Origin: Patescibacteria group bacterium
GTDB taxonomy: Bacteria; Patescibacteriota; Patescibacteriia; UBA2591; UBA6264
Assembly (NCBI GenBank): GCA_028713575.1
Contig: JAQTOB010000004.1
Span: 30,001 to 62,000, forward strand
Direction: 5' to 3'
DNA length: 32,000 nt
Position 1 is the first letter of the stretch. Each line of letters starts with the position of its first letter. The notes beneath the pieces are model-generated. The model searched no databases and was not told where the DNA came from. It saw nothing but the letters and a program-made list of their open reading frames with translations. Shown in pieces: positions 6,652-22,301 of this stretch. The position numbers and the translations under genes are program-made.

Positions 6652-7695
6652 ATGGGGCTTTTTGGTATAAGAAAAAATAAAAGTTTTTTGGGCATTGATA
6701 TTGGGTCAACCAGCATCAAGTTGGTTGAATTAGGCAAAGAAAACGGTTTGCCGGTTTTATTGACTTATGGTTATGCCGAGAGGGCGATGAGCGATATTGT
6801 TAACGGTGATGCCAAAGAAATTTTGAGTAAAGTGGCAGTTTTGCTTAAAAAGTTATATACGCAGGCCGGAGCGGACAGCTATCAGGCAGTCACGGCTTTG
6901 CCGAATTTTTCAGTTTTCAATTCCGTGATTACCCTGCCGATGATGAGCAAAAAAGAACTTGATTCTGCGATTCATTGGGAGGCAAAAAAATTTATTCCTA
7001 TGCCCATTGAAGAAGTAATTTTAGATTGGCGAATTATTGATGTTATTGATGTGGATAAAAAAAGAAAAAATTATCGCATTCTTTTAACCGCCGCGGCAAA
7101 AAATTTGGTTAAAAGATATGTGGAAATTTTTAAACAAGCCGACCTGCAACTTCTTTTTTTGGAAACAGAAGCTTTTGCCTTAGTTCGTTCCTTGCTTGGT
7201 AAATCGCAAGCCACTACCATGATTATTGACACCAGTGCCGTCACCACGGATATTATTATTATTGAAAAGGGCGTGCCCGCGCTTAATCGTAGCATTGATG
7301 TTGGCGGGATTACTATTTCTCAGGCCATTGCCAATGGATTGAGCATTGATTTTAAAAGAGCGGAGCAATTTAAAAGAGACATTGGGATGAGCGGTCCTTC
7401 AAAAATTTCCCGGGTGATTGAAGAAATTTTAAAACCAGTAGTTGATGAGATGAGTTATTCTTTAAGGCTTTATCAGGATCAATCGGGTAAAAAAGTGGAA
7501 CAAATTATTTTGTCTGGCGGTTCGGCTTATTTGCCGGATTTATCCGATTATTTTTCAAAAATTATGAATATACGCGTTATTGTCGGCAATCCTTGGGCCC
7601 GTATTTCTTTTAACCAAGAATTAAAGCCGGCCTTGGATGAAGTGGCTCCGCGTTTTGCCGTTGCCATTGGTTTGGCTTTAAGGGAAATTATTTAA
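6652..7695 (+). CDS. pilM: Type IV pilus assembly protein PilM (actin-like ATPase fold)
   Basis: 347 aa with the N-terminal GIDIGSTSIKLVEL motif, internal motifs IIDTSAVTTDIII and DVGG, a C-terminal ILSGGSAYLPDL, and a position at the head of the pil block. Confidence 0.85.
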   Translation: MGLFGIRKNKSFLGIDIGSTSIKLVELGKENGLPVLLTYGYAERAMSDIVNGDAKEILSKVAVLLKKLYTQAGADSYQAVTALPNFSVFNSVITLPMMSKKELDSAIHWEAKKFIPMPIEEVILDWRIIDVIDVDKKRKNYRILLTAAAKNLVKRYVEIFKQADLQLLFLETEAFALVRSLLGKSQATTMIIDTSAVTTDIIIIEKGVPALNRSIDVGGITISQAIANGLSIDFKRAEQFKRDIGMSGPSKISRVIEEILKPVVDEMSYSLRLYQDQSGKKVEQIILSGGSAYLPDLSDYFSKIMNIRVIVGNPWARISFNQELKPALDEVAPRFAVAIGLALREII

Positions 7696-7699
7696 TAAT

Positions 7700-8401
7700 A
7701 TGGATTTGCAAAAAGATTTGGGAAAAGATAATTCTTCCGATACGGTTAAAAAAACCGGCTTGTTTAAATCTCTTTTTAAAAAGAGAAAAACAGAAGAAAA
7801 GTTAAAAAAAGAATCGGTTTTGAAAAATCTTAAACAAACGTCGGATAACGGCGACTTGGGAATCAGCCTGATGCCGGCAAAGGCGATTATCATTCCCCGT
7901 ATTGTTCATTCAAGAAGTTTATTTTTAATCGCGGCCATTATTGTTATTATTAATATTTTTATCATTACTTGGCTTTATCTTGATTGGCATTTTGAAAAAA
8001 TAGAGAACGCGGTGGCAGAAATTGAAAGAGAAATTCAATTTATGAAAACGCAAAGTTTATCCTTGTTAAATGTCAGAGACGAGATAGCCGTTTTGGAAAA
8101 AAATGCCGCTCGGGCAGAAAGTATTTTAAACAATCATATTTATTGGACGAAATTTTTTAGTTTATTGGAAAAATATACTATATCGGATGTTTTTTTCAAT
8201 GATTTTACCGCCGACACAAGCGGCATTATTCGTTTAGATTCAGTTGGTCGTGACCTTATTTCCATTGCTAAACAATTTGTCATTTTTTCTCAAGCCCCGG
8301 ATTTTGTCAAACAAGTGGATGTTTCCGATGTGGTTAATACGGTAAACGGCATCAGAGCCACCTATACTTTAGTTTTAGAAGATAATGTATTTAAAAGGTA
8401 A
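7700..8401 (+). CDS. pilN: PilN-like pilus assembly membrane protein
   Basis: 233 aa. The ISLMP motif resembles the INLLP PilM-binding motif. It is followed by a single TM (LFLIAAIIVIINIFIITWLYL) and a coiled coil. The gene starts 5 nt after pilM. Confidence 0.55.
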   Translation: MDLQKDLGKDNSSDTVKKTGLFKSLFKKRKTEEKLKKESVLKNLKQTSDNGDLGISLMPAKAIIIPRIVHSRSLFLIAAIIVIINIFIITWLYLDWHFEKIENAVAEIEREIQFMKTQSLSLLNVRDEIAVLEKNAARAESILNNHIYWTKFFSLLEKYTISDVFFNDFTADTSGIIRLDSVGRDLISIAKQFVIFSQAPDFVKQVDVSDVVNTVNGIRATYTLVLEDNVFKR

Positions 8402-17078: not shown

Positions 17079-17120
17079 CCGCCAAGGGCGGACCCGCCTT
17101 TGGCGGGAAATATTTTTTTA
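17079..17120. terminator. GC-rich hairpin plus T-run between convergent genes
   Basis: CCGCCAAGGGCG / CGCCTTTGGCGG forms a 12-bp stem (one G-U pair) with loop gacc at 17079-17106. It is followed by gaaatattttttt. It lies between the + strand membrane gene and the - strand tRNA-Pro. Confidence 0.5.
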
Positions 17121-18503: not shown

Positions 18504-19049
18504 ATGCCGCCCAAATTATTGCTTCATGTTTGTTGCGCCAATTGCGGAATAGTTCCCATTGAATTACTAAGAGACCGGTTTGACCTGACTTTATTTTGGT
18601 ATAATCCGAATATTTATCCCCGAACAGAATATCAAAAACGCTTGGCAGATGTTAAAAAATTAGTTAAAATATATAAAAAGGATTTGATTGTTGAAAACAA
18701 TGATATTAAAAAGTGGTTTGAAATTACCAAAGAGCTGGAAAACGAGCCAGAAGGGGGTAAAAGGTGCGAAAAATGTTTTCAAATGCGATTAAGCCGAACC
18801 GCGCGGTTAGCCAAAGAAAAAAGTTTTGATTTTTTTGCCACTACTTTAAGTGTCGGACCGCAGAAAAGGGCGAAAATAATTAATAAATTGGGAGAAAAAT
18901 TGGCGAAAGAATGCGATTTGAAATTTTACCCGGCGGATTTTAAAAAACAAGATGGATTTAAAAAAAGCGTTGAACTGAGCAAAAAATACGGGTTTTACCG
19001 CCAGCACTATTGCGGTTGCGTCTTTAGCATTAGAACGTCAAAACATTAA
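18504..19049 (+). CDS. queH: Epoxyqueuosine reductase QueH (DUF208)
   Basis: LLLHVCCANCG, WYNPNIYP, KRCEKCFQMRL and YRQHYCGCVFS match the QueH cysteine motifs. Confidence 0.85.
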   Translation: MPPKLLLHVCCANCGIVPIELLRDRFDLTLFWYNPNIYPRTEYQKRLADVKKLVKIYKKDLIVENNDIKKWFEITKELENEPEGGKRCEKCFQMRLSRTARLAKEKSFDFFATTLSVGPQKRAKIINKLGEKLAKECDLKFYPADFKKQDGFKKSVELSKKYGFYRQHYCGCVFSIRTSKH

Positions 19050-19052
19050 AAC

Positions 19053-19409
19053 ATGAAAACAAGTAGTTTTAAAGAAAATTTAAAAAAGAAAATGGATGAA
19101 TATGTTCATTTTGTTTATAAAATTACTCTTAATTTTCCTAAAGCGGAAATATATGGAACTGTTTCTCAATTAAGAAGGGCGTCTTTGTCGGTGGTTTTAA
19201 ATTATATAGAAGGATTTGCCAGAAGAAAGAGACTTGTTCAATTGAATTTTTTAGAAATTTCTTACGGGTCGTTAAAAGAATCAAAATATCTTTTACATTT
19301 TGCTTTGATTGAAAATTATTTGGACACAAAAGACTATAAAATTGCTTTAAAAATGGCAGAAGAAATCGGAGCTATGCTTTGGACAGAAATATCTAATTTA
19401 GATAAATAA
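19053..19409 (+). CDS. Four-helix-bundle protein (23S rRNA intervening-sequence protein family)
   Basis: 118 aa. The motif SQLRRASLSVVLNYIEGFARR and the later SLKESKYLLHFA are typical of this family. Confidence 0.7.
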   Translation: MKTSSFKENLKKKMDEYVHFVYKITLNFPKAEIYGTVSQLRRASLSVVLNYIEGFARRKRLVQLNFLEISYGSLKESKYLLHFALIENYLDTKDYKIALKMAEEIGAMLWTEISNLDK

Positions 19410-19450
19410 TTAATTGTTTTTTAGCCAAAGGCTGATCCGTCTCCGACGGA

Positions 19451-19515
19451 AATGTTCTAATGTTCTAGTGTTTTAATGTTTTAATGTTTTTATGTTTTTA
19501 TGTTTTTATGTTTTT
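19451..19515 (+). repeat. Third 8-bp-unit array (8 units), ending at the ATG of the next ORF
   Basis: The register is aatgttct|aatgttct|agtgtttt|aatgtttt|aatgtttt|tatgtttt|tatgtttt|tatgtttt|t-ATG. Confidence 0.8.
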
Positions 19516-19872: not shown

Positions 19873-20550
19873 ATGAATAAGTCTTATTTTTATTTGCCGG
19901 CTATTTTTTGTTTAATTCTTTTTTTTATTTTTAAATTTCCTTCCGTTAAAGCAATAATTATTGGTTATGATTTGATTTTAGTTTTAACCATTTTTTTAGT
20001 TTTTTTCTTGATTAAAAAGAAGATAAAAACCCGCTGGATGTTTTTGGCTCAAAGCGCGGTTTTTGTTTTAAGCGGTCTGGGATTTTTCCTTTTTGTCGCC
20101 GATGTCTTTTGGCAATTTGTTTTCGGCCTGATTTTTATTCTCGGCTTGGGCTATTTTTTCTTTCATATTTTTAAATTATTTAATCAGCCCCGTATTTGCC
20201 AGCCGGATGCTTTGGAAAAAATGAGTTTTTGGCAAAATTTCATTATTATTTATTGGACTTTAAGCGTGATTGGCGCCACTCTCGGAGTTAATCCTTTAAA
20301 TTGGCGATTTTTTTCCGCTTTGCCTTTGGTTTTTCTTCTGTTTTATTGGTTGGGTTATTATTCTTTTTATCTTAAATCAGGAGAGCTCAAATTGATTAAA
20401 ATTGATTTGTTAATCATTGGTTTGGTTTTGACGGAAATTCATTTAGCCATAAATTTTTTGCCCTTAGGTTTTTATCTAAACGCTTTGATAATTTCTTCAT
20501 TATATGGTATAATTATTAACATATGGCAAAAGATAAAGAGTTTTGTTTAA
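19873..20550 (+). CDS. Multi-pass membrane protein (function unknown)
   Basis: 225 aa with about 6-7 hydrophobic helices. No motif was recognised. Confidence 0.5.
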   Translation: MNKSYFYLPAIFCLILFFIFKFPSVKAIIIGYDLILVLTIFLVFFLIKKKIKTRWMFLAQSAVFVLSGLGFFLFVADVFWQFVFGLIFILGLGYFFFHIFKLFNQPRICQPDALEKMSFWQNFIIIYWTLSVIGATLGVNPLNWRFFSALPLVFLLFYWLGYYSFYLKSGELKLIKIDLLIIGLVLTEIHLAINFLPLGFYLNALIISSLYGIIINIWQKIKSFV

Positions 20551-20675
20551 AATTTGGAGCCGCCAGTTGGCGGGGAACAAATTTTAGAAACAAAACCTTT
20601 ACCCCGCCCCCATTTTTTCTAAATTTTCTATAATATCCGACTATGTAGTATTATGTATATGTTCTACAAGATAAA

Positions 20676-20879
20676 TTGACAAAAGAGATATACATTGGTT
20701 ATAGCGAAAATTTAATTTCTAGAGCCAAAGACCACCAAAAGCAAAATAAAAATTGGGTACTTGTCTACTACGAAGCTTATCAATCAGAAAAAGCTGTTCA
20801 AGAAAGAGAAAAAAGATTGAAATATTATGGTACCTCGCTTTCTAATTTAAAACGTCGTATTAAAGATTGCTTTTTCTGA
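20676..20879 (+). CDS. Small GIY-YIG nuclease-domain protein; start unresolved and possibly a pseudogene
   Basis: EIYIGYSENLISRAKDH followed by WVLVYYEAYQSEKAVQEREKRLK is the GIY-YIG/URI fold. The conserved first strand YYVYVL is encoded in frame upstream (20649-20666), but between it and the only upstream ATG (20643) lies a TAG (20646). Confidence 0.6.
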   Translation: MTKEIYIGYSENLISRAKDHQKQNKNWVLVYYEAYQSEKAVQEREKRLKYYGTSLSNLKRRIKDCFF

Positions 20880-21017
20880 GAAAAAATGGGGGCTGGGTGC
20901 TCATAATTATAACGAAATTATTTCCCCAGCACATAATGGATTTTCTAAAAAAAGAATATCAATATTATTATGAAATTAAAATAAGATAATCAAAACTCAG
21001 CATAGCGCCATATATTT

Positions 21018-22301
21018 ATGTGCTGGGTCATAATTTTGATAATTATGGTAAAAAAAATTGATATCACCGATGATTTAGAAGAAAAAGAAGTGGAAATAAA
21101 AAAAAGCGAGAGGTTGAACGCTTTGGAAAACCGCCAAAACAAAGCAGAGAAAAAAATCTCGGAATTTTATCAGAACAAAGAGTTTTCTTTTGAAAAGCCC
21201 AAAGCTTCAACCAAGGGCCTTGTTTGGCTGATTATTATTTGGTCAATTGTTTTCGGTTTGGCTGGTGGCACTTTGGCCAGTTATTTTATGTTGACGCGCG
21301 AAAGCATTAACATTCCTTTTTTGAATAAAGAAATTAAATTAAATAAAATTTTTTCTCCCAAGGAGGTTAATACGGTAACGGAAAAAAATGTTACGGTTCT
21401 GGCCGAAACCAGAATGGCGGAATTAGTTGATGATTTATTTGTTAAAACCGTTAGAATTTTTAAAACCAAAACTCAAGACCAAACAAGTTTTTTAGAGCAG
21501 ATTTATGCTCCTTGGCAGGCCTTGGGAATCGGCGCTTTCGTCAGTCCTAATGGTTGGCTAATTACTGCTTATAACTTTGAGCCGGAGACAGATTATGTGG
21601 TCGTTGATTATAAAAATAATATTTTAAGCATTGAAAAAATAATCAGTGACCCAATCACTGATTTGAGTTTTTACAAAATCAATCAGGAAGAATCCCCCTT
21701 TTTTGAATTAGAAGAAAAAAAAGGAATAATCCCGGGTCAGCAAGCGATTATTTCGGACAAATTGCAGAATGTTCATTTAACTGCCATCAGTCAACCTTTG
21801 ACTAGAAACATTTTTAAAACCGAAGATTTGGTTTATTCCAGTGACAAATTTTCCGAATTTATGCGCTTGGAGTTTTCTGAGGTCGCTTTTCCCCAAAGTT
21901 TAATTTTCGGCTTAAACGGTAAACTTTTGGGATTTATTTCGCAAAAAGCCGTTCCGGCGTGGCAAGTGAGAGCTTTAATTGACCAGGTAGTGGCCACGGG
22001 TGAGATTAAGCGGCCGTTTTTGGGCATTGATTATTTAAGAATAGACCAAGCTCCCGGCTTAACCAGTCCCCGTTTTAAAGATTTGAACCAAGGGCTGATT
22101 GTTTATGGCTCGCCTTTGGCAAATAGTCCGGCAGAAAAGGCCGGGATTAAAAACGCGGATGTGATTGTTAAAATAGACGGCCAAATTATTGACAAAAATA
22201 TTGACTTGACTGAATTGGTTTTACAGAAGATACCTCAAGAAATGGAAATAACGGTTTTAAGAGAAGGAGAGCAAATAATTTTAAAAGTTGTCTTAGAATA
22301 A
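21018..22301 (+). CDS. Membrane-anchored HtrA/DegP-like protein with C-terminal PDZ domain and a degenerate catalytic triad
   Basis: It has a TM (LVWLIIIWSIVFGLAGGTLASYFML), a trypsin-like core alignable to HtrA (GIGAFVSPNGWLITAYNF, DLSFYKI, LIFGLNGKLLGFIS) and a PDZ domain (GLIVYGSPLANSPAEKAGIKNADVIVKIDGQII). The start is either ATG 21018 or ATG 21045. Confidence 0.7.
   Translation: MCWVIILIIMVKKIDITDDLEEKEVEIKKSERLNALENRQNKAEKKISEFYQNKEFSFEKPKASTKGLVWLIIIWSIVFGLAGGTLASYFMLTRESINIPFLNKEIKLNKIFSPKEVNTVTEKNVTVLAETRMAELVDDLFVKTVRIFKTKTQDQTSFLEQIYAPWQALGIGAFVSPNGWLITAYNFEPETDYVVVDYKNNILSIEKIISDPITDLSFYKINQEESPFFELEEKKGIIPGQQAIISDKLQNVHLTAISQPLTRNIFKTEDLVYSSDKFSEFMRLEFSEVAFPQSLIFGLNGKLLGFISQKAVPAWQVRALIDQVVATGEIKRPFLGIDYLRIDQAPGLTSPRFKDLNQGLIVYGSPLANSPAEKAGIKNADVIVKIDGQIIDKNIDLTELVLQKIPQEMEITVLREGEQIILKVVLE

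Follow-up and report, generated by a model that had tools for sequence, protein, structure and literature searches.

A GIY-YIG mini-gene enclosed by its own stem at the start of an HtrA-like gene in a Patescibacteria genome: probably a recently killed copy of a selfish cassette

Free-standing GIY-YIG homing genes are lodged between host genes or at their ends and are presumed to be copied by break repair. The T-even Seg proteins (e.g. SegB) and I-TevI exceed 200 aa, carry a separate DNA-binding domain and cut double-stranded targets. The mini GIY-YIG proteins of the UPF0213/YhbQ type and the Slx1 proteins are to our knowledge not described as repeat-bounded or mobile. The Ssn nucleases, of which SsnA of Neisseria meningitidis is an example, are associated with NTS/SRM hairpin repeats; they bind the hairpin in single-stranded DNA and cut beside it, their site-specific cleavage being confined to single strands, and the NTS-ssnA-NTS layout was noted to resemble an insertion sequence (Chenal et al. 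2025, PMC11893778). In bacteria of the Candidate Phyla Radiation (CPR), non-intron insertions in rRNA genes encode GIY-YIG or 23S_rRNA_IVP proteins, their sites in the rRNA being the top or the base of a stem-loop (Tsurumaki et al. 2024, PMC11270868). Here we describe a GIY-YIG mini-gene found within 32,000 nucleotides of a Patescibacteria group bacterium (assembly GCA_028713575.1, contig JAQTOB010000004.1; contig C4:30001-62000 in our numbering), referred to below as the window. The host genome measures 692 kb, has 34% GC and is 99.5% complete; its relatives are metagenome-assembled genomes of the Patescibacteria/CPR type. The mini-gene is bracketed by a 20-bp inverted repeat and lies between the first codons of an HtrA-like PDZ gene and the remainder of that gene. 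It is probably a recently killed copy of a selfish, hairpin-bounded cassette, which may have moved by hairpin nicking and repair copying. The descriptive part of this reading (an insertion that spared its neighbours, a co-varying stem, a selected protein, different sites of residence and present decay) can be held with high confidence.

The two arms of the repeat (Table 1) are complementary at 19 of 20 positions over an interval of 258 nt. They enclose the GIY-YIG open reading frame (ORF) exactly, the last base of its TGA being the first base of the right arm (20879); a preliminary description made from the letters of the window had claimed this arrangement, and it is confirmed. The positions which that description gave for the arms, the ATG, TAG and TGA codons, an internal TTG (20676), a TATAAT hexamer and the peptide YYVYVLQ (in frame from 20649) are all right on reading the sequence. 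The cassette unit is 298 bp long and its gene has 77/78 residues. The single C/T mismatch of the arms (20605 vs 20894) is common to L034 and L227, two contigs from other metagenomes that carry the same cassette. When matches to the arm with up to 3 mismatches are counted, 2 are found in the window against 0.00 expected (100 shuffles), and the 14-nt core of the arm occurs at two places only in the whole genome, both of them here. The idea that the repeat arose by chance or is the stem of an ordinary terminator, the latter named beforehand as an outcome that would overturn the claim, draws on the AT-rich inner half of the arms only. It can be dismissed almost entirely, being already refuted by the shuffles, by shifted controls and by co-variation of the arms (below); the arms stand 258 nt apart, no terminator-like site was found in the region, and the repeat is conserved and co-varying across 101 loci.

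Apart from the TAG, the frame is intact. It matches Pfam PF01541 with an E value of 3.2e-10 (40.6 bits, cut-off 22.6, profile positions 2-69 of 78) and keeps nearly all of the residues that are invariant in alignment A2 (Y5, Y16, G18, R26, H30, Y41, E43 and E55), whose counterparts are readable in it. The AlphaFold model of an intact, 88%-identical homolog (P0001; pLDDT 92.7) has strands at residues 2-9, 15-20 and 37-45 and helices at 23-33 and 48-76. This is a beta-beta-alpha-beta-alpha core, with WYVYVLQD as strand 1. The profile match and the core fold, with the motif tyrosines on strands 1 and 2 and the Arg, His and Glu residues, are those of the GIY-YIG superfamily. The solved folds nearest to the model are UPF0213 BH0048, Slx1 and I-TevI. 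The UPF0213/YhbQ-type proteins (BH0048, PDB 1zg2; EF2693, PDB 1ywl) and the Slx1 core are the closest solved relatives and have the same beta-beta-alpha-beta-alpha order; by sequence the nearest is 1zg2 (E 1.2e-5), the similarity being weak (about 23% identity). Intact homologs are 77 aa long and contain PF01541 only, the whole chain being the catalytic core. An NCBIfam scan gave only sub-threshold matches, to group I intron endonuclease and UvrC models, and an Rfam scan of the window found two tRNAs only, with no match in the inserted element. The terminal inverted repeats are of the kind found in insertion sequences. These need a transposase, however, whereas the only ORF between the repeats encodes the GIY-YIG hydrolase, and no transposase (DDE, HUH, serine or tyrosine recombinase) is encoded there.

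The ATG of the gene is followed at once by TAG, for which three explanations had been offered: recent inactivation, read-through of the stop codon, or initiation at the internal TTG. L034 is a 98.8-kb contig with the gene order of the window, and the two are 99% identical over 561 nt around the cassette, with three differing positions. The first lies within the first of three hairpins (H1, see below), beside the stop of the upstream gene. The second is a G for A at 20647, which gives TGG (Trp) in place of TAG. The third is the absence of a C (window 20799), which frameshifts the L034 gene. The TAG allele is found again in L227, an independent contig of 1.6 kb from a different Joint Genome Institute (JGI) metagenome, and the intact 77-aa homologs in the databases (76-88% identity) begin MW/MF-YVY. 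This alignment of codon 2, which the preliminary description had proposed, singles out recent inactivation. Because L034 has TGG, the intact homologs begin MW/MF and two assemblies carry TAG, the ATG-TAG is, on this alignment, an ordinary TGG-to-TAG nonsense mutation by a single G-to-A change. Comparison of the two strains further shows that the nuclease gene was inactivated twice independently, by the TAG here and by a 1-nt deletion in the sister strain L034. Origin of the TAG through a 3-nt tandem duplication of GTA was considered and is ruled out by ATG-TGG-TAT-TAT in L034 and MWYVYV in P0001. Between cassettes, the ratio of nonsynonymous to synonymous substitution (dN/dS) is 0.03-0.06, and the protein was therefore functional until recently, under purifying selection.

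The other two explanations would leave a working protein, and it is true that no further stop interrupts the frame between the TAG and the TGA and that nearly all family-invariant residues are retained. They are nevertheless very unlikely. None of the 44 tRNAs of the genome has a CUA anticodon and TAG terminates 38 of its 266 long ORFs, which rules out an alternative code or a suppressor tRNA; as read from its tRNAs and gene ends, the genome uses the standard genetic code. The sister strain, which has TGG at this codon, is itself frameshifted. Since strand 1 of the model comprises residues 2-9, a product started at TTG 20676 would be predicted to lack this strand together with the first motif tyrosine. 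As for the TATAAT hexamer (20629-20634), it exists, 8 nt before the ATG as reported; its role as a promoter is not supported, a consensus scan giving no -35 partner and the hexamer not being conserved in L035 or L036, the two closest cassettes, which lie in other genomes.

The cassette interrupts a conserved order of genes, namely QueH, a 122-aa protein, a 225-aa membrane protein and the HtrA-like PDZ protein. The syntenic site was compared with 19 relatives' loci, in 15 of which the membrane-protein gene, and hence both flanking genes, is visible. QueH, the 122-aa protein and the HtrA-like gene are syntenic in all 19. In the 15, the membrane-protein and HtrA-like genes abut, overlap or lie no more than about 80 nt apart. 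None of the 19 loci has a GIY-YIG match at the site, so that the search for empty sites proposed in the preliminary description has found them. In the closest two relatives (G002 and G004) the PDZ gene begins ATGGCAAAAGAT (MAKD...), its start lying within the last part of the membrane-protein gene (3' end), and relatives read MAKDPTKKINIADN where the window resumes with MVKKIDITDD. L034 has the same insertion, at 99% identity, and a gene caller places the start of its HtrA-like ortholog (418 aa) at the equivalent ATG. These alignments show that, once the lineage had parted from the nearest other species, about 510 bp entered the HtrA-like gene at codons 4-5. Relative to the relatives the indel is thus about 510 bp, not 298 bp. 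The insertion supplies a new stop (TAA, 20548-20550) to the upstream membrane-protein gene and a new ATG (21045) to the downstream gene, and therefore both host genes stay intact. A promoter-like site, presumably the original promoter of the HtrA-like gene, stands 9 nt before the relic ATG (20523); an equivalent sequence precedes the ATG of the gene in relatives. It probably now drives transcription into the insertion. A 9-bp duplication (ATGGCAAAA on the left, ATGGTAAAA on the right) is possible; its context is AT-rich, and other copies of the element also end in ATG. A 10-nt direct repeat, TTTGATAATT (20484 and 21035), was considered as a target duplication and rejected, as it fits chance in AT-rich DNA.

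Table 1. Coordinates of the cassette, its surroundings and related copies in the genome (window positions unless a contig is named)
Feature	Position	Strand	Remarks
Promoter-like site of host gene	20485..20513	+	TTGATA-17 nt-TATAAT with TG; 11/12 consensus matches, best of region
Relic start of HtrA-like PDZ gene	20523..20534	+	ATGGCAAAAGAT = MAKD, severed from its gene by the insertion
Hairpin H1	20534..20601	+	GC core CCGCC-AGTT-GGCGG at 20560-20573; holds TAA 20548-20550
Inserted segment, about 510 bp	20535..21044	.	Hairpins H1, H2 (nuclease gene) and H3; boundaries good to a few nt
Hairpin H2	20601..20898		20-bp repeat as stem, nuclease gene as loop
Left arm of 20-bp inverted repeat (stem of H2)	20601..20620	+	ACCCCGCCCCCATTTTTTCT
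GIY-YIG mini-gene, now pseudogene	20643..20879	+	ATG 20643, TAG 20646-20648, open frame 20649-20876, TGA 20877-20879
Nonsense codon TAG, from TGG (Trp)	20646..20648	+	TGG in L034; TAG in L227; closest intact homolog starts MWYVYVLQ
Right arm of inverted repeat	20879..20898	+	AGAAAAAATGGGGGCTGGGT; reverse complement ACCCAGCCCCCATTTTTTCT
Hairpin H3	20899..21050	+	Begins GCTCATAATTATAACGAAATT as in other copies; ends in new ATG of downstream gene
HtrA-like PDZ gene with replacement start	21045..22301	+	ATG 21045, MVKKIDITDD...; PDZ domains
Framework copy	C2:1661-1800		Empty, 140 nt; outer 12 bp identical to those of the window repeat
Framework copy	C5:52470-52553		Empty
Framework copy	C1:35430-35740		Other cargo, about 270 nt, GC-rich, structured
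Framework copy	C11		Frameshifted GIY-YIG gene

The inverted repeat is not peculiar to this locus. Among 149 homologous loci, drawn from metagenomes and genomes, 116 have the gene bracketed by such a repeat at a score of 12 or more; a shifted control gave 2 of 133. The arms begin ACCC(C/A)GCAC, ACCCCCACAC or GCCCCTCAC, with ACCC..GGGT as the common outer motif; the right arm usually overlaps the stop codon, and the left arm, in many homologs, extends as far as the ATG. Over 101 distinct loci, complementarity of the arms within a locus is 0.8-1.0 at positions 1-19; beyond position 20 it is no higher than background. When the left arm of one locus is paired with the right arm of another, it is 0.27-0.47 at positions 5-19. 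The arms of L036 pair at 20 of 20 positions with compensatory changes relative to the window (ACTTTGTTT/AAACAAAGT). The left arm of L035 is identical to that of the window at 20 of 20 positions; the coding DNA of the two differs by 18%, with synonymous divergence (dS) saturated. Judging from these arm comparisons, the repeat is a selected, conserved and co-varying property of the gene family. Mismatches inside the arms are G.T in 26 cases and A.C in 9, an excess which hints that one particular strand is the folding one.

Such an excess on the sense strand raises the question of whether the stem acts at the RNA level only, as an RNase III-type processing or insulating structure in a read-through transcript, like the intervening sequences of rRNA, recognition at the DNA level being then a mistaken idea. 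A host promoter lies upstream, and both arms must be transcribed in the many homologs whose left arm ends at the ATG and whose right arm covers the stop. Cassettes at other loci abut the 5' ends of tRNA and RNase P RNA genes, and the non-intron insertions known from rRNA genes of CPR bacteria code for GIY-YIG and 23S-IVP proteins (PMC11270868). A role confined to RNA would, however, leave unexplained both the arrival at new sites and the strong purifying selection on the nuclease. DNA hairpins also tolerate G.T pairs, and roles in RNA and in DNA are compatible. We regard the RNA-only explanation as improbable.

In many homologous loci (L084, L136, L139, L168, L176, L195, L196, L091, L158, L179 and L106) the right arm (..GTGAGGGGC) leads straight into the 5' acceptor end of a tRNA gene. 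A similar junction in L165 and L184 joins the arm to RNase P RNA at its 5' end, the Rfam match starting within the 3' end of the nuclease gene. In L060, L128, L166, L178 and L187 the right arm ends ..GGGGT and overlaps a TTGACA-like -35 box, with a -10-like hexamer about 17 nt further on. From their sequence, cassettes of the L060 type may either sit at the exact upstream edge of a promoter or bring a promoter with them.

Evidence for mobility comes from the sites that related cassettes occupy. The L035 cassette (protein 88% identical) lies between unrelated genes within the same repeat, and the L036 cassette (80% identical), again with this repeat, sits between pilM and the gene after it in a pilus cluster. 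This cluster is syntenic with the window, where 4 nt separate the stop of pilM from the next ATG (7693-7702); at the L036 junction there is a three-hairpin element of about 420 bp with an intact GIY-YIG cassette. The window genome and L036 are thus each empty at the other's cassette site. Host proteins beside the L035 and L036 cassettes are 35-60% identical to those of the window genome. Dating of the transfer by host versus cassette divergence was abandoned, as dS is saturated and the outcome only suggestive. The genome holds nine GIY-YIG mini-genes. Among the copies bounded by inverted repeats, those on C4 (the window), C11 and C6 are broken and the one on C17 is intact; the remaining mini-genes lie beside tRNA genes and a partial tRNA copy. 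Such genes are present in 36 of 55 genomes of the order, with up to 17 per genome. The view that the cassette is a small mobile element is supported by these sequence comparisons, because the site is empty in 19 relatives' loci, other sites are occupied elsewhere and the repeat co-varies.

The preliminary description had left it open whether the cassette was mobile or invertible, and only the former has held. Recombination sites of an invertible segment (a phase switch) would likewise be inverted repeats flanking a short segment. The orientation of the gene relative to the asymmetric hairpins H1 and H3 is nevertheless the same in C4, C11, L035 and L036, all 4 copies that have these hairpins, and L034 and L227 have the orientation of the window. 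No opposite orientation turned up, no search for a recombinase (invertase) in the neighbourhood having been made, and inverting the segment would switch nothing evident. A phase switch is accordingly most improbable.

The inserted 510 bp contains more than the cassette. Folds of 20523-21060 give three adjacent hairpins, H1, H2 and H3, with z = -6.1 as RNA and -8.0 as DNA; the cassette is the second of them. Within H3 there is a further stem of the ACCC..GGGT type, which encloses no ORF (CCCAGCACATAA at 20925-20936, TTATGTGCTGGGT at 21016-21028). The H1-H2-H3 framework occurs in five copies in the genome, of which two hold a broken GIY-YIG gene, one holds other cargo and two are empty. The empty copy on C2 is a short-loop example of the ACCCCGCCCCCA...TGGGGGCGGGGT hairpin. 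In the genome search for further copies of the repeat, also proposed in the preliminary description, the 14-nt core of the arm was absent elsewhere and the outer 12 bp recurred unchanged in the C2 copy. A long ORF starts 52-146 nt after each framework copy, and the copies on C2, C5 and C1 all end in the ATG that opens one. The motif at the H2/H3 junction has 139 matches in 21 of 55 genomes of the order, vs 3 for a reversed control. In the junction-motif loci that were fetched, the pairable central hairpins are mostly 39-116 nt long and none contains a recognisable GIY-YIG gene. Since these hairpins are mostly short and gene-free, the nuclease gene is, on the loci compared, present only now and then in the loop of what is a common hairpin repeat.

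Hairpins of the form CCGCC-N(2-6)-GGCGG, like the core of H1, are abundant in their own right. There are 34 in the genome, often as adjacent twins, against about 1 expected; one example is window 17079-17110 (C4:47079). Four of the 34 lie within 250 nt of a GIY-YIG gene.

How, then, does this locus compare with described systems? Ssn/SRM is the closest of them, as judged from its published description. Both have a single-domain GIY-YIG nuclease of less than 100 aa with no DNA-binding domain (77 aa in the homologs here, about 90 aa in Ssn), and in both cases GC-cored hairpin repeats accompany the gene and are found dispersed over the genome as well. The geometry differs. An Ssn gene has a complete small hairpin on each flank, whereas the cassette has one stem made from two arms with the gene in its loop. 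H1 and H3 do flank the cassette gene as hairpins, yet the conserved repeat is a single stem halved around the gene. Unlike Ssn, the window cassette is a demonstrable insertion and is decaying. The SRM motif, HGTCWYN(0-2)YYVSBRHN(0-5)WNVSBRGN(0-2)RNCYNB, has 2 matches in the 692 kb (0.35 expected), and the nine GIY-YIG genes all lack one within 500 nt.

It could be argued from this likeness that the gene serves the host as an Ssn-type system, which cuts hairpin-bearing single-stranded DNA and modulates transformation or recombination, with the flanking hairpins as regulatory or target motifs. The size of the single-domain protein, its flanking hairpins and the genome-wide abundance of hairpin repeats would suit such a function. 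Furthermore, the gene family is present in 18 of 21 genomes with the framework motif vs 18 of 34 without it, the genomes being kin and not independent. However, two near-identical strains have broken the gene independently, and of the four or five repeat-bounded copies in the genome three are broken. The gene is missing from the site in all relatives examined and its sites differ between genomes; no copy has an SRM match nearby; and nine paralogs in a 692-kb genome suit a parasite better than a housekeeping gene. A host-serving system is for these reasons a rather unlikely explanation.

Other systems resemble the selfish cassette in part. Like the Seg and I-TevI genes, it is a GIY-YIG gene found between host genes or at their ends, with presence/absence polymorphism at an otherwise conserved site as is usual for homing endonuclease genes. 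Unlike them, it encodes 77 aa without the binding domain of a homing endonuclease, and it has a conserved enclosing stem. The CPR rRNA insertions share with the window both the group of organisms and the two mini-gene families; they lie within rRNA genes, whereas the copy described here lies at the start of a protein-coding gene. REP/BIME repeats with their RAYT proteins, and IS200/IS605, are similar in having small palindromic repeats, many gene-free and few gene-carrying, with the hairpin as the likely recognition element. Their enzyme is an HUH tyrosine transposase that forms covalent intermediates, which a GIY-YIG hydrolase cannot do.

The second of these families is also represented in the window. 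A gene for a 118-aa 23S_rRNA_IVP/bAvd-like four-helix-bundle protein (19053-19409) lies 1.2 kb upstream, between QueH and the gene for the 122-aa protein. It is absent from the syntenic site of relatives and present in L034. Its region (19040-19490) is bracketed by a 15-nt inverted repeat, AAAACATTAAAACAT (19040) and ATGTTTTAATGTTTT (19476), the right copy lying in an 8-mer array, and twin small hairpins, AGCCAAAGGCT and TCCGTCTCCGACGGA, follow the gene. By its sequence this has the appearance of another mini-gene insertion, similar to those known from CPR rRNA genes.

A mechanism for the spread of the cassette can be proposed by analogy with Ssn. The arms would pair in single-stranded DNA or RNA, so placing the gene in the loop of a hairpin. 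The intact nuclease would recognise ACCC..GGGT hairpins of its own type in single-stranded DNA and nick them. Repair of the nick or break from a loaded copy, by host recombination repair, would then copy the gene into the loop of the empty hairpin, with the stem, and the H1 and H3 flanks where present, serving as homology. The stem would be conserved as the recognition element and perhaps would also fold the insert away from the host gene in the read-through transcript, a resemblance to the insertions with GIY-YIG or 23S-IVP ORFs in CPR rRNA genes (PMC11270868). As a specific account of recognition, nicking and copying this model is tentative, and it may well be wrong in its particulars.

Several points weigh against the cassette being a selfish element of this kind. 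GIY-YIG enzymes hydrolyse DNA and cannot join strands, and therefore copying must rely on host repair. The SRM motif published for Ssn is absent, and no clear target-site duplication is seen at the insertion. The excess of G.T over A.C mismatches also fits a role of the stem purely in RNA. With dS between cassettes saturated, their age relative to that of their hosts is uncertain. Finally, the alleles seen at the locus have the whole of the 510 bp or none of it, never an empty hairpin, and therefore the arriving unit may have been either the cassette or the whole three-hairpin element.

For annotation, the start of the HtrA-like gene is to be placed at 21045, not at 21018 or 20523, and it should be borne in mind that inserted repeat elements can supply start codons and gene ends in such genomes. 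Beyond the Ssn paper (PMC11893778) and the CPR rRNA insertion paper (PMC11270868), we found no description of a gene-in-stem layout in the searchable literature. More broadly, one may speculate that repeat-bounded cassettes of about 265-300 bp with a single 77-aa GIY-YIG protein are autonomous mobile elements of an undescribed kind, among the smallest known. The nuclease would read the hairpin of its own arms in single-stranded DNA, and the unit would be copied into the loops of hairpin repeats, to the 5' boundaries of genes for structured RNAs (tRNA, RNase P RNA and rRNA) and to gene starts across CPR bacteria, the stem keeping the host transcript usable. This generalization is still doubtful. 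A nuclease of 77 residues, with no DNA-binding domain and under strong purifying selection, moves along with a co-varying stem of 20 bp and is found hundreds of times, in genomes well below 1.5 Mb that have little room for junk. If the stem is indeed the recognition element, these loci would provide many natural pairs of small nuclease and hairpin with differing specificities, a resource which the Ssn paper (PMC11893778) calls for. They would also provide a model for the transposase-free spread of hairpin repeats and mini-genes in CPR genomes.

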